A stretch of DNA of 39,495 nt from a virus (Duplodnaviria > Heunggongvirae > Uroviricota > Caudoviricetes): IMG/VR virus record IMGVR_UViG_2695420897_000008; one strand, written 5' to 3'. The notes beneath the pieces were generated by a model. That model was not told where the DNA came from. It was given only the letters and a program-made list of their open reading frames with translations, and made no database searches. The position numbers and the translations under genes were made by a program. Below, piece after piece: positions 27,101 to 39,284 of this stretch (positions within the stretch are counted from its first letter, which is position 1; the number at the start of each line of letters is the position of its first letter).

Positions 27101-27460
27101 TTACTCCTTAGAGCCACCAAACTTGTTACCGATTACTCGCATTGCAGCCCCACGAATAGCATCGACACCGATCAGCCCAACACCACCACCAATGGCAACA
27201 GAAAGAGATTTAGGCCATCCAACATACTCAAGAGCGGATGCAAAGGTCAGCGTCAGAGCACCACAGAGCAAAATCTCAAGCGTTTTTCGTTTCCAGCCGC
27301 CGCCACCGCCAAAATAGGCAATGCGCAAGCCAGCCATAACAATTGACATAACCACTGCGCCCAACGGCGTATCTCCACGCCACCAACTTTGTAAGAGTTC
27401 CAGTAAGTCAGGCCAGGAATGAGGAGCATTGTGCATTTTCATACTTCCCACCTCCGCCAT
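27101..27460 (-). CDS. Holin (class with possible dual start, MAEVGSMKM...)
   Basis: 119-aa ORF immediately upstream of the endolysin with TM segments; first gene after the late terminator region. Confidence 0.65.
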   Translation of the reverse strand: MAEVGSMKMHNAPHSWPDLLELLQSWWRGDTPLGAVVMSIVMAGLRIAYFGGGGGWKRKTLEILLCGALTLTFASALEYVGWPKSLSVAIGGGVGLIGVDAIRGAAMRVIGNKFGGSKE

Positions 27461-27553
27461 TACGGGGTGTTGTTGAAAGGCGGGCCCTGCGTATACGCCC
27501 GTAGGATTGGGTTATGAGCCGTCCTTCGGTGGGCCCTGAATACAAAAAAAGTT

Positions 27554-27576
27554 CGCCATAGCGAACCTTGTTAAAT
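27554..27576 (-). terminator. Rho-independent terminator upstream of the lysis cassette (candidate tR' of the Q-antiterminated late transcript)
   Basis: Minus strand reads GTTCGC-TATG-GCGAAC followed by T7. Confidence 0.6.
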
Positions 27577-27887
27577 TTGTTAAAAAAGGAAGTTATTTAA
27601 CATAATGTACGTTATAGGAACCACACGATCCCCGCTCGCAATAGATTTGCGATGAAAGGCCTATTTAATCAACTTAAGTGGTCCAGAATGACGAAATTCG
27701 AGTGAATAAAAGGTGCATAAAAAAGGGCAAAAACTGCATAGCGTTTTTTCGCAGCGAAAGCCCTGTTTTATTAGCTTTTCCCCAGAATGGGGCAATAAAA
27801 AAGGCCCCCTTGCGGAAGCCTCTTCGTGATGAACTGTTTTCAACAGATATCAGGCTAATCGGCTTTTTGGAATTCCACAACTATTTT

Positions 27888-28228
27888 TTATCTTACCTTG
27901 ATGCCTGATGCCGTCAGATGTTTACGACAGTCCTGAATACCTTCGTTATAACCCGCATCGTAGAAGCTATCCGGCTTTGCCTTCAGCGCAGGAAGCGTAA
28001 CGCTGGTAGCTCTTCGTTCGGCCAGAACACCTGCCTGAAAGAGTGTCCACATCAACTGAACTGCTGAATCACAGTAAGTAACATCTTCACTGTACAATTC
28101 TCGTTCAATCCGATGCCAAGTTGAGCCTTCATTGATGCGCCAATATTACCTTTGACCTGCAACGACAGGTCTGGGTACCTCTGTTCCATGAAGCTTTCAA
28201 ATCTGTTGCGAACGCTGATCAGAGCCAT
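27888..28228 (-). pseudogene. Hypothetical gene downstream of Q, split into two overlapping frames (58-aa and 69-aa ORFs; -1 shift)
   Basis: ATG 28228 with AAGGGA RBS 30 nt after the Q stop gives a 58-aa ORF; the 69-aa ORF 27888-28097 follows in the -1 frame. No family recognised. Confidence 0.3.
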
Positions 28229-28259
28229 CTGGTTCCCTTACGTGATTGATTGCTGGATA

Positions 28260-28682
28260 TTATGCCGCCGAGCAGCTCCTACGCAAAGTCCTGATAGCCT
28301 GAGGCTTTGACTGAACCGACTGATCCATTTCGAGCACCACATCCAGCATGGCTAAGCAACCGTCAATAAATCCCTCTGCCGCCTGAAGCCTCTTCAGAAC
28401 GTGGGTGTGAGATACGCCGAGCTTCTCACCCATCGCCCGCACGGGCATGGCCTGGACGTAATGCCACTCAAGGAGCGTGCACAGATACGGATCTTTTTTC
28501 TTCAGGCAGCTCATAGCGGAGTTGATGATAAGACCGTCATTGTCACTGCATTTCAGCCTTCCAGACTGCGTCGCGGGTAGCAGATTCTTAAACCCGGCTG
28601 CAACAGGAGGAAAGTAGACGCTACCACCTTCACTCGCTGCCCAGCCACCCCAGCGCTCTAAAACCTGTTGAATATTACGCAT
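28260..28682 (-). CDS. Late-gene antitermination protein Q (QuuD-like small Q family)
   Basis: 140 aa; N-terminus MRNIQQVLERWGGWAA... resembles E. coli DLP12 QuuD as remembered; sits upstream of the lysis cassette. Confidence 0.8.
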   Translation of the reverse strand: MRNIQQVLERWGGWAASEGGSVYFPPVAAGFKNLLPATQSGRLKCSDNDGLIINSAMSCLKKKDPYLCTLLEWHYVQAMPVRAMGEKLGVSHTHVLKRLQAAEGFIDGCLAMLDVVLEMDQSVQSKPQAIRTLRRSCSAA

Positions 28683-28811
28683 AGCTCTGACCTCTACGTT
28701 TTGCTACGAAAAAATTTTCTGAGAACCACGTCTGTTTATCCGTGGGTGTGGATAACGCAGTTCCGATTCGCTTATTACACGCTGTTATGTGCAAAAAATT
28801 CCTTGTTCGGC

Positions 28812-28983
28812 CTGTACCAATCTGTACCCACCTGTACCAGCTCTTTTCAAACCTTTTCCCCAAGCGACTTATATATATATATGGGGTTCTTAGTAATTAG
28901 GTTGGTACAGATGGTACAGTTGGTACTGACCTTTAAATTCAATTAGTTAAAATGTACCAACCTCTATTTTGAGGCTGGTACAG
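28812..28983. repeat. Iteron array (CTGTACC / GGTACAG) flanking an (AT)6 tract: candidate replication origin or primase-binding region
   Basis: CTGTACC at 28812, 28822 and 28832 (exact 10-bp phasing); (AT)6 at 28871-28882; inverted copies GGTACAG at 28904, 28913, 28977 and GGTACTG at 28922; partial TGTACC at 28953. Confidence 0.6.
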
Positions 28984-31156
28984 GTTGGGACACCGCCTCA
29001 AAAATTCGAGTCATTTTCCCCCCAATTCGCCTTTGGGCACGCTTATACCCGCAATTTTGCAAAACATTACTAATTCGCATTTCTTCGCGTTTTCCGATGC
29101 GGTCAGGATTTAGCCCAATCGCATCACGCAAAACATCACTTGCGCGTAAAAATTCGCAATTTCGCGGAAGTTCATTAGTCATCAGGTCTGGCGTGTCGAG
29201 CCATTTCTCTACCGTTTCAAGCCAAGCATCCTTGATGGTGTACTGTTCATGGACACTCGCTGCCAGTTGTTCAGCCTCACGGAACTGGATACCCCCCAGA
29301 CGCTGAAACACCTCACGAGCCTCAGCCCAAAGTAAAAGGAGATCTCTTTTTATCGCTTTCACGTCGACTTTCGACACTTCCACGGGGAGCCAGCGACGGT
29401 TACCAGTCTTGTCCGCAAGGAATTCGTCCTCATTGGTGGTACCAACGAACACCAGGCGACGAGGAAACTGGGTGGCGAACTCCCGGTATTTCGGGATCCA
29501 GTTTTCGTGAGTACGCGTCACAAACGCTTTGATTGACTCCAGCTCTTTGGTATTAAGTCCGCGCAGTTCACCAATCTCTGCCACCAGCCGACCACGCATT
29601 TTTCGAGCGAGATCATCGTCTTTTTCGGCAAAAGAGATTTCAGTAAAAAACGCAGGATCAGGGCTCAGTGCCTCCACTCCGGAAGACTTACCGCAGCCCT
29701 GCGGACCAACGAGGATCGGCACCATATCCGCTTTGATGCCTGGCTCCAGTACTCGCCCCGCCAACGCGGTCCACATGTACATAGACACCGCACGGGTATA
29801 AGGCGTGTCGGCTGTACCGAAGTGCGTATGGTAGAAACATTCGATGCGCGGCACGCCATCCCACTCCAGCCCGTTCAGCCAGGTAATCGCTGAATCGAAT
29901 GGTTGTTCATCGGCTGCAAGTAACACCACATCGCGAATAAGTTCACGACCAACAGGTTTAAATCCCCGCTTTTCCATCGTGATGCGCAGGCGCGCATAAT
30001 CCGCATCGGTGAATGCTCGCCATTGTCCGGATCCTGCAGAGGCAAACATGATTTCGTCGCGGAACTGGTCAAAGCGAATATCGATGTCCACAAAATCAGG
30101 GCGTACTACTGCTTTGGCTGCGTTGCTGATGGTTGCCTCGATACGCCCCCATTTATCACGCTCGAAAGCAGGCAGCGGTAAAGGTTCCGCCACTTCGGTG
30201 CTGGTCAGATCTTCGAAATCGTCGTTGCGGATCCCGATGGCATTAAGGAAATCTCCGTCATCACGATGCGCACAACTGGCATGCAGGCATTTAAAATGCC
30301 CCTGCTCAAAGCCCGCGGTTCCCGCAGGAAAATAAGCTGTGCTTGTTGGATCGCCCCCGCTACTGTGGCCGTCTTCAAACGGACAGCGGATATATCGTTC
30401 ACCATTTGCGCCATCCAGCAGCGTCCAGCCATTGGCATCAAGATATTCAGCTGTATCATCCGTCGCGCCGGGCGTGAATGCTGATCGGTCGCGCATCTTC
30501 GTGTTGCCCGCTTCGGTGGTTACCGACACAGGGAGTTGTTCAGCCAGGCGCTGCCACAGCGTTTCAAGCTGCTCACCAGTAATAGCCGGAGGTTCATCCG
30601 GCAAACCACCGTCCCATTCAATACGCGCGCCGCTGCTGTGCGTACCACAGGCAACGAACTGCTGCCCGTTCGCCAGCAACTCGATAATGCCCATATCCCC
30701 CGCCAGGCGATGGATACGCTTACAGAAATCACCATCAACGGCCAGCAGATACAGACACTTATTACTGTTTGCTCGCCAGCGTCGCGGCGGCAACTCCCCC
30801 AGAAGTTGCACAAGCGTTTTGCGAATATCTGCCTGAATGTCTTCATCTTCGCTATCGCAGTCCAGCGCCAGCCAGCCATGGCCTGTACGCACGCAGATGC
30901 CATAATCCGGTTCATTCGACCAGCGGGCAAAATCATGCTCAGTAACAACATACCCGGTCCATTGAGCAATACCGGTGACCTGGCGGTCCCGGTTATAGCG
31001 ACTTGGCGTCTTACCCAGCGCTTTCAGTTTACTATCAGGGGATATGGTCGCACCGGGGTTACATACAACTGGGAGAAGATGATCAGTTCTCCCCAATACC
31101 AGGTCGAAATGAAACCACTCATCAGGCGTAGCTCCCCATGGTTTGCTATCGGACAT
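28964..31156 (-). CDS. Primase-helicase (N-terminal primase/polymerase-like domain plus P4-alpha/D5-type helicase domain)
   Basis: 730-aa ORF directly after cro; Walker A GPQGCGKSS and Walker B-like LVAEIGEL in the C-terminal half; Cys/His-rich central region. Confidence 0.7.
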   Translation of the reverse strand: MSDSKPWGATPDEWFHFDLVLGRTDHLLPVVCNPGATISPDSKLKALGKTPSRYNRDRQVTGIAQWTGYVVTEHDFARWSNEPDYGICVRTGHGWLALDCDSEDEDIQADIRKTLVQLLGELPPRRWRANSNKCLYLLAVDGDFCKRIHRLAGDMGIIELLANGQQFVACGTHSSGARIEWDGGLPDEPPAITGEQLETLWQRLAEQLPVSVTTEAGNTKMRDRSAFTPGATDDTAEYLDANGWTLLDGANGERYIRCPFEDGHSSGGDPTSTAYFPAGTAGFEQGHFKCLHASCAHRDDGDFLNAIGIRNDDFEDLTSTEVAEPLPLPAFERDKWGRIEATISNAAKAVVRPDFVDIDIRFDQFRDEIMFASAGSGQWRAFTDADYARLRITMEKRGFKPVGRELIRDVVLLAADEQPFDSAITWLNGLEWDGVPRIECFYHTHFGTADTPYTRAVSMYMWTALAGRVLEPGIKADMVPILVGPQGCGKSSGVEALSPDPAFFTEISFAEKDDDLARKMRGRLVAEIGELRGLNTKELESIKAFVTRTHENWIPKYREFATQFPRRLVFVGTTNEDEFLADKTGNRRWLPVEVSKVDVKAIKRDLLLLWAEAREVFQRLGGIQFREAEQLAASVHEQYTIKDAWLETVEKWLDTPDLMTNELPRNCEFLRASDVLRDAIGLNPDRIGKREEMRISNVLQNCGYKRAQRRIGGKMTRIFEAVSQPVPASK

Positions 31157-38522: not shown

Positions 38523-39284
38523 ATGCAGGAACTAACTGAAATGCCGATCACCTATCCATACCCGAGAGAAACTTTTCCTGACTTTTTGAGGGAGTGTGGG
38601 TTCACCAATTTTTCCCACGAACAGCGTGAGACTTGTGACTGCTATCGTTTAACGAATGGCGTAATTGTTAACCTTTACACCACCCGGACCATTCAGTTTC
38701 AAGGTAACCCTCAAGAACGTCCCAATGTTGAAACTGCAATAATGACCCATTTAGGAACGCCGCCCACGGCAACACCACTAGCCGTAGAACAGCCATCTGA
38801 GCTCCCCAAAAAGATATTCATTGTTCACGGCCATGACCATACTGCAAAGGAGCAACTTGAGCTAATCCTTCATAAACTTGGATTACCAGACCATTTCATT
38901 TTGCAGAATACGGGAGGGACTGGACTCACCATTATTGAAGAGCTTGAACGTGAAATTGGGCAAGGACAAACTGCTACCCGTTTCGGGATTGTTCTTTTGA
39001 CACCTGATGATATGGGATACTCAAAGCGCGCCGGTGAAGCAGAAATCCAACCCCGCGCAAGACAGAACGTTGTACTCGAGATGGGTATGCTTCTTTCGTC
39101 CTTAGGGCGCAGCAATGTAGCAATCCTTCAGAAACAGCACCTAGAACAGCCTTCTGATGCTAACGGGATTTTGTATCTGAATTTCAACGACCATGTACGT
39201 GAAACAGTTCCTCGTCTAGTGCAACGGTTACAAAATTCTGGTTTCGAATTTACACAAGCTCAAATAGCTAACGCTTCCTCGTAA
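38523..39284 (+). CDS. Protein with C-terminal TIR-like nucleotide-binding domain (COG4271/PF10137-like) and an N-terminal domain of unknown function
   Basis: Motifs KIFIVHGHD, VLLTPDD and RARQNVVLEMG match the TIR-like family as remembered; AAAGGA RBS; followed by a terminator. Confidence 0.55.
   Translation: MQELTEMPITYPYPRETFPDFLRECGFTNFSHEQRETCDCYRLTNGVIVNLYTTRTIQFQGNPQERPNVETAIMTHLGTPPTATPLAVEQPSELPKKIFIVHGHDHTAKEQLELILHKLGLPDHFILQNTGGTGLTIIEELEREIGQGQTATRFGIVLLTPDDMGYSKRAGEAEIQPRARQNVVLEMGMLLSSLGRSNVAILQKQHLEQPSDANGILYLNFNDHVRETVPRLVQRLQNSGFEFTQAQIANASS

Follow-up and report, generated by a model that had tools for sequence, protein, structure and literature searches.

The window analysed here, a stretch of viral DNA of 39,495 nt (39.5 kb), matches the chromosome of E. 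coli FDAARGOS_1059 (NZ_CP066032.1) with 100% identity. On its minus strand, a Cro-like HTH gene is followed by the gene of a 730-residue protein, a 281-bp intergenic region and the genes for a Q antiterminator, a holin, an endolysin and a small terminase, the last of which lies 2.6 kb from the repeat array described below. The divergent plus-strand genes encode a LexA-type CI repressor, a PD-(D/E)XK DUF2800 protein, an Enc34-type ssDNA-binding protein and a family-A DNA polymerase, and a portal-like DUF1073 protein is also encoded in the window. The element that carries these genes is a temperate phage, complete and encoding replication proteins of its own. A PICI or SaPI island, helper-dependent and of ~10-15 kb, was considered and rejected, as the window carries terminase, portal-like, holin, endolysin, Q, CI/Cro and polymerase genes. 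The base-composition strand bias (GC skew) in the window tracks gene orientation. The module formed around the 730-residue protein is present in 109 of 5426 complete E. coli genomes, and the same family also occurs in Enterobacter, Salmonella, Citrobacter, Klebsiella, Serratia, Yersinia and Xenorhabdus; one relative, the Yersinia phage YeP4, is an isolated phage of 35 kb.

Three features of the window lie apart from this module. A 147-nt direct repeat with 99% identity (368-514 and 6032-6178) flanks a 5.6-kb segment encoding an RpiR/SIS-type regulator and an SLT transglycosylase, and looks as if DNA had been inserted into the 3' end of a phage gene or this end had been duplicated. The phage DNA polymerase gene is immediately followed by an ORF (38523-39284, plus strand) that encodes a TIR domain of the CAP12/Pycsar-effector type (Pfam E 3e-31), probably a defence gene carried by the prophage. 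Rfam gives a weak match to ctRNA_p42d (27792-27823, minus strand, 26 bits, E 0.006, below gathering) in untranslated DNA between the genes for Q and the holin; it probably corresponds to the hairpin of the Q-dependent late leader or terminator.

The 730-residue protein combines a Prim-Pol domain and a VapE/D5-type SF3 helicase domain with a predicted C-terminal winged helix. The VapE-like domain was found by Pfam at residues 427-639 (E 2e-60), and the Prim-Pol domain (PF09250) was found when the N-terminal third was scanned alone (E 2e-9, 38.4 bits against a cut-off of 22.8); the primase type here is archaeo-eukaryotic. The matching PHROGs families concur, being those of a DNA helicase and a DNA primase, and the initial annotation of the gene as a primase-helicase is thus borne out by its domains. 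In relatives, the gene is annotated only as “VapE domain-containing” or “replication protein”. A phmmer search against the PDB returned a sole sequence match, SaPI1 Rep1 (7pds_A), with an E-value of 7e-34 over residues 384-657. The AlphaFold model of the protein, built with database homologues, has a mean pLDDT of 66. Structural similarity search with this model using Foldseek gave the 7pds chains as the best matches (E 5e-20 over ~450 columns, nearly the entire Rep1 chain), followed by the helicase region of NrS-1, ASFV PrimPol, SaPI5 PriRep and poxvirus D5/E5.

Downstream of this gene lies a dense array of short repeats. Exact matches to CTGTACC occur on the plus strand at 28812, 28822 and 28832, with a spacing of 10 bp, and on the minus strand at 28904, 28913 and 28977. 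The whole window holds 15 such matches compared to 2.63 expected, and the six within 172 bp correspond to a Poisson P of ~3e-15. Defining an iteron as a 9-mer with at most one mismatch to TGTACCAAC, we found nine iterons in 28813-28992, starting at 28813, 28823, 28833 and 28953 on the plus strand and at 28901, 28910, 28919, 28974 and 28984 on the minus strand (Table 1). The three phased CTGTACC copies, the (AT)6 tract and the inverted GGTACAG copies overlapping the 3' end of the primase gene, which the initial annotation had described, are all present: the tract is TATATATATATAT, that is (TA)6T, at 28870-28882, and with the stop codon at 28964-28966 the copies at 28974 and 28984 fall inside the coding sequence. 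The element had been placed at 28812-28983, which was right as to its location and too short at one end, as it reaches 28992, 9 bases further. The nine copies thus span from 28 nt within the coding sequence to 152 nt beyond the stop codon.

Table 1. Features of the repeat region and of the adjoining gene, in window coordinates
Feature	Coordinates	Strand	Remarks
Conserved TGCAAAAAATT (AATTTTTTGCA on the gene strand)	28790..28800		Outer edge of the module (locus alignment)
Distal array, iterons 1-3 (CTGTACCAAT, CTGTACCCAC, CTGTACCAGC)	28812..28841	+	Exact 10-bp spacing, facing the central spacer
Central spacer, 59 bp	28842..28900		(TA)6T between CCCC and GGGG; GC ~0.30
Gene-proximal array, iterons 4-6 (TGTACCAAC, TGTACCATC, AGTACCAAC)	28901..28927	-	9-bp spacing, facing the central spacer
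Second AT-rich spacer	28928..28952		GC ~0.28
Iteron 7 (TGTACCAAC)	28953..28961	+	Inverted relative to iterons 8 and 9
Putative initiator gene, 730 aa	28964..31156	-	Prim-Pol, VapE/D5-type SF3 helicase, C-terminal winged helix (predicted)
C-terminal domain (aa 636-730), predicted winged helix	28967..29251	-	From the structure model
Iterons 8 and 9 (TGTACCAGC, TGTCCCAAC)	28974..28992	-	10 bp apart, within the final 30 nt of the coding sequence
Beta-hairpin wing (YKRAQRRIGGKMTRIFEA), predicted	28994..29047	-	Second strand MTRIF varies with the iteron class
Recognition helix H3 (KREEMRISNVLQN), predicted	29054..29092	-	Conserved in most family members

According to Tandem Repeats Finder, no other tandem repeat in the whole window scores as high as the two triple arrays. 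The 39.5-kb window has no second iteron cluster, and its remaining CTGTACC copies are scattered singles. The sequence GGTTGGTACAG occupies 28900-28910 and its reverse complement begins at 28953, and iterons 7 and 8 together form a 12-bp hairpin that spans the stop codon. Iterons 8 and 9 encode VSQPVPA, a disordered tail of the protein (pLDDT <50). Outside the conserved TGCAAAAAATT, the sequence varies with the identity of the following gene.

No Rfam family matched within the iteron region when 27400-29300 was scanned at E-values up to 1, and a scan for promoters and terminators gave a number of sites not above that of shuffled sequence. Inspection by eye near the conserved AATTTTTTGCA found no sigma-70 or sigma-54 promoter with a spacing consistent among loci. 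Two plus-strand ORFs (28668-28946 and 28742-28900) were rejected as spurious, since the iteron replacements among loci rewrite both. In the Q-proximal segment, 57 nt beyond the distal array, lies the only perfect DnaA box (TTATCCACA) of the 39.5-kb window (28747-28755, minus strand), adjoined by an inverted near-copy at 28735-28743. It is kept in locus L007 and degenerate in L002 and L031, and may be due to chance or be a site for a host factor.

We compared 86 loci, comprising 80 loci on viral contigs (48-100% protein identity), an E. coli relative with 83% DNA identity, YeP4 and four out-of-sample loci, picked solely for wing sequences unseen before. Read in gene orientation, those with enough downstream DNA share one layout: two direct iterons at or in the gene end, a single inverted iteron, an AT-rich stretch of ~25 nt, three direct iterons spaced 9 bp apart, a (TA)n spacer and three inverted iterons at 9-10-bp spacing, after which the conserved AATTTTTTGCA closes the layout. 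This arrangement is kept in 81 of the 81 related loci with enough downstream DNA as well as in the four out-of-sample loci (4/4), and its conservation extends to relatives with no more than 48% protein identity. In all loci, 86-90 bp separate the proximal from the distal array, and the central spacer is near-invariant among iteron classes (ACTAAGAACCCCATATATATATATAAGTCG..GGGGAAAGGTT). In L082, which is 48% identical, the counterparts of iterons 8 and 9 fall after the stop codon.

Within this constant layout, the iteron itself changes. At least 12 classes were found among the related loci, namely TGTACCAAC, TGTCCCAAC, TGTCCCCAC, TGGAACCAC, TGCAACCAC, TGTTACCAC, TGTATCCAC, TGTAACCAC, TGTAACCAA, TAGACAACC, TAGACCACC, TACTCAACC and a TTCCCC type, many of them one base apart, which makes a cross-class matrix with 1 mismatch uninformative. 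The initial annotation had counted absence of the motif from related phages as evidence against an origin. The exact motif is indeed missing in most of them, and other motifs occupy the same layout; absence from relatives therefore misleads here, because the motif has been swapped rather than lost. As judged from sequence comparison, this replacement of the motif within a kept layout is the strongest evidence for function.

Some loci depart from the common pattern in one part. In L082/L083 and L081 (48-51% identical), the (TA)n is replaced by CGCGTGCGCGCGCACGCATGTATGTA, a 26-nt tract of alternating purines and pyrimidines, which in L082/L083 lies at about +120 to +180 after the stop codon, or by GCGCGCGC; the conserved property of the spacer may thus be purine-pyrimidine alternation, prone to cruciform or Z-DNA formation, and not AT richness alone. 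In L088, a contig of Xenorhabdus cabanillasii, five tandem copies of TGTAACCAA plus three more lie at +0 to +100, and this amplified stop-proximal cluster precedes the usual inverted copy and the arrays. L031, L036 and L039 are mixed, with TGTATCCAC in the arrays, and TGTAACCAC in the gene-end copies and one distal copy. Their wing, VLKVWV, is one residue away from wings paired with pure TGTAACCAC, and these mixed origins may be transitional or reflect a relaxed specificity.

The iteron sequence changes together with the wing of the adjacent protein. Comparison of L019 with L028 showed that 10 of 118 positions differ over the arrays and the spacer, and six of these ten differences affect the same base in all six iterons, changing A to C or the complement (hypergeometric P 6e-8). 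The copies at the stop codon carry the same change. The only nearby change in the protein is in the wing, from KMTRIFE to KKMRIFE (MT to KM). Nine sites that change together with unchanged DNA between them point to one common reader with an altered specificity.

The same association holds over the whole set, where each of the 26 distinct wing hexapeptides comes with one iteron class. The wings MTRIFE and VTRIFE are paired with TGTACCAAC, KMRIFE with TGTCCCAAC, KCKVWE and KSKVWE with TGGAACCAC, GCKVWV with TGCAACCAC, LMKVW with TGTTACCAC, QQR[IV]F with TAGACAACC and QIRVWV with TAGACCACC. Phe versus Trp at wing position five tracks A versus C in the iteron in two separate pairs. The recognition helix, like the spacer, is conserved over the iteron classes. 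The sequences of the 86 loci support the view that the repeats behave as binding sites of the initiator protein, co-varying with it. We propose a division of tasks in which recognition of the constant half of the iteron (C[AC]AC) probably falls to the recognition helix, and that of the variable half probably to the second strand of the wing, which itself varies.

Two parts of this association call for a more cautious reading. The covariation of the extreme tail (VSQPVPASK) is trivial, because the tail is encoded by the iterons, and the wing codons lie 30-60 nt from the iterons, so that linkage within a swapped cassette could give part of the association. In L007, whose protein is 98% identical to that of the window, the swap-like segment runs from the wing codons to the conserved TTGCA, and by its sequence the difference from the window looks like a cassette swap.

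A 20-nt direct repeat (TGCAAAA[A/C]ATT.., 16/20 identical) at 28790-28809 and 29058-29077 exactly flanks the segment, wing plus origin, in which L007 departs from the window. Its outer copy (AATTTTTTGCA) is conserved in all loci, and it might mark where recombination exchanges cassettes, or might serve in priming or in binding a host factor. Two Klebsiella proteins, P0094 and P0097, with 68-70% identity overall, have the C-terminal domain and wing (MTRIFE) of the window class, which indicates that the C-terminal domain, and presumably the origin too, has been exchanged between diverged helicase backbones.

The array is located between the replication gene and Q, and three of its copies straddle the stop codon, a position that would also suit regulation. 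The same protein might bind the iterons as an autoregulatory operator or as a roadblock against Q read-through, with the origin elsewhere. In iteron plasmids, the binding sites of the initiator are often regulatory too. However, the module stays unchanged whether the next gene is Q or an unrelated one, two phased arrays that face each other across a conserved (TA)n spacer form the layout of tested SaPI and PICI origins, and the window has no further iteron cluster. We consider it unlikely that regulation is the whole role of the array; a regulatory role alongside origin function may exist.

That the feature is mainly an intrinsic terminator at the end of the primase-helicase gene, accompanied by chance repeats, is a less probable explanation, and in our judgement a poor one. 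Such a site is predicted at 28982..28953 on the minus strand, with a 12-bp stem and a 6-nt loop followed by TTTTAAC, and a terminator is present in P4, between alpha and crr, and in pRN1, after orf904 (PMC4234260). But one site was found against 1.1 expected in shuffles, the stem is made up of two inverted iterons, and L002 and L082 keep the hairpin but have no T-run. Moreover, a terminator would account for two of the nine copies and leave the arrays and the covariation unexplained.

Short intergenic repeats of phages can also serve other readers, such as CI/Cro, Q, a partition protein or the small terminase at a pac site, and the small terminase gene is 2.6 kb off. Eight iteron classes occur with one cro cluster and eight also with one downstream-gene cluster, and phages whose Q gene is 88% identical are without the intergenic iteron region. 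The iteron class is therefore independent of both the cro cluster and the downstream gene, and CI, Cro and Q were rejected as readers of the repeats on these grounds. No partition genes were seen, and the class follows nothing but the wing of the adjoining protein, which leaves a reader of this kind very improbable.

Least probable of all is that the inverted arrays function by forming a large DNA stem-loop or cruciform, the covariation being compensatory change in the stem: the strand folds better than 200 of 200 shuffles (z -4.4), pRN1 with the same domain architecture uses a stem-loop origin downstream of the gene (PMC4234260), and the inverted arrays change jointly, which preserves pairing too, but the spacings of 10 and 9 bp put the arms out of register with best arms of 14-15 nt, three more copies lie outside the putative stem, and the change also tracks the protein wing. 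The unequal 10/9-bp phasing and the extra copies fit iterons in duplex DNA better, although the two readings are not exclusive.

Altogether, the region 28790-28992 is very probably the replication origin of the temperate phage, recognised by the protein encoded immediately upstream. In the mechanism we propose, the winged-helix domains would bind the nine 9-bp iterons, and the opposed triple arrays, phased at 9-10 bp, would position initiator assemblies on either side of the 59-bp spacer. The (TA)6T tract within the spacer would then melt, and helicase rings could self-load onto the separated strands, with no dedicated loader needed. The fused Prim-Pol domain would prime synthesis, after which the phage family-A polymerase, the Enc34-type SSB and the PD-(D/E)XK nuclease would take over. 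The iteron trio around the stop codon may act as an auxiliary binding cluster. Our literature search found no paper describing the origin of this prophage family.

This analysis assigns a concrete candidate origin and its putative initiator to a widespread enterobacterial prophage family. The origin layout has been termed unique to PICIs in the PICI literature (PMC6092414), and, contrary to this, the hallmark layout appears to occur in complete phages too, which bears on satellite detection and on ideas about the origin of satellite replicons. The matched wing and iteron variants form a natural graded series, which could supply material for specificity swaps and candidate orthogonal replicons. 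Little would be lost if the finding were wrong, as SaPIs and P4 already provide examples of the mechanism itself.

At least 12 initiator-origin pairs are distinguished by 1-2 wing residues and one base repeated in all nine iterons, for example MT to KM with TGTACCAAC to TGTCCCAAC, or Phe to Trp with A to C (twice independently). It is conceivable, though we hold it only tentatively, that the family evolves its origin specificity in single-base steps, and that selection keeps co-resident prophages and satellites from firing or stealing each other's origins. If so, the family would be a natural read-out of the code by which the wing of a winged helix recognises DNA and a source of mutually orthogonal E. 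coli replicons, and the “PICI-exclusive” layout would be ordinary phage equipment, possibly the source of satellite replicons.

A related unit is found on small plasmids of Serratia and Yersinia, which encode a relative with 38% identity that consists of the VapE helicase and the C-terminal domain (the helicase-only type). Downstream of the gene come a terminator, direct iterons, an AT-rich stretch of ~100 nt and inverted iterons, on the 12.9-kb Serratia plasmid NZ_OX291476.1 (L084, 2983-3320) and on the 14.7-kb pYe4449-2 (L085, 6027-6350), with the direct iterons GTTCCACCC and GTGTGACAG, respectively. PLSDB assigns no replicon type to these plasmids, and the gene-plus-iteron unit is probably their replicon. 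By analogy, they lend circumstantial support to the proposed origin mechanism.

Among well-known phage origins, that of lambda has the O iterons inside the O gene together with an AT-rich region; O only binds and recruits the host DnaB via P. As in lambda, the iterons here overlap the coding sequence of the putative initiator, and initiator and iteron specificities co-vary among related temperate phages, whereas the initiator here is itself helicase and primase, and no homologue of lambda O or P was found in the region examined.

The domain order of Prim-Pol, SF3 helicase and winged helix is shared with ORF904 of pRN1 and a protein of Bordetella phage BIP-1, for which the proposed origin is a stem-loop of ~100 nt without iterons downstream of their own gene (PMC4234260). 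The candidate origin likewise lies just 3' of its own gene beside a terminator-like hairpin. It differs in consisting of phased tandem iterons, though the inverted arrays are also able to fold.

P4 alpha is a single protein with a primase of the Toprim type, an SF3 helicase and, at its C-terminus, a winged helix that binds the origin (PMC4234260). In the P4 record, crr lies directly 3' of the alpha gene with a terminator between the two, and the type-1 repeats of ori are arranged as three direct, one inverted and two direct copies of GGTGAACAG adjoining an AT-rich stretch. This grammar is that of iterons 4-9 here, with repeats of 8-9 bp in both orientations. By contrast, P4 requires both ori and crr, ~4.7 kb apart, compared to a single cluster in the 39.5-kb window. 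The 730-residue protein has no significant similarity to P4 alpha (BLASTP best E 0.67), and a profile of its C-terminal region aligned to the alpha C-terminus with an hhalign probability of 0.2%. Membership of the P4 alpha family was thus rejected, as similarity is not detectable and the primase is of the Prim-Pol type here and of the Toprim type in P4. The “P4-like” origin of the initial annotation therefore stands as an analogy, that of an initiator-helicase origin, which layout and covariation support, but not as kinship: to say that it works like P4 seems fair, and to call it a member of the P4 family does not.

The closest described origin layout is that of SaPIs and PICIs, and the closest solved protein relative is SaPI1 Rep. 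SaPI Rep has been shown experimentally to be a self-loading SF3 initiator helicase whose C-terminal winged helix binds iterons; these lie directly 3' of rep, in two oppositely oriented halves that flank an AT-rich centre. Two hexamers are believed to load there, and binding and melting proceed without ATP (PMC9371898). In E. coli, a segment with pri-rep and ori of the PICI EcCICFT073, laid out in the same way, drives autonomous replication and can maintain a plasmid (PMC6092414). The phage described here likewise has a VapE/D5-type SF3 initiator, homologous to SaPI1 Rep by sequence and predicted fold, a C-terminal winged helix (here predicted), and a helicase-primase fusion as in some islands. 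The iterons are also immediately 3' of the initiator gene, with at least two opposed copies per side of the AT-rich centre (here three and three). Compared to SaPIs and PICIs, the element here is a full-size phage with genes for lysis, packaging and the tail and with a DNA polymerase of its own, its iterons are 9-mers instead of penta- or hexamers, two copies overlap the coding sequence and an extra trio lies at the stop codon. By analogy with these systems, the region is best read as an initiator-helicase origin of the kind known from SaPIs, PICIs and P4, here in a full-size temperate phage.
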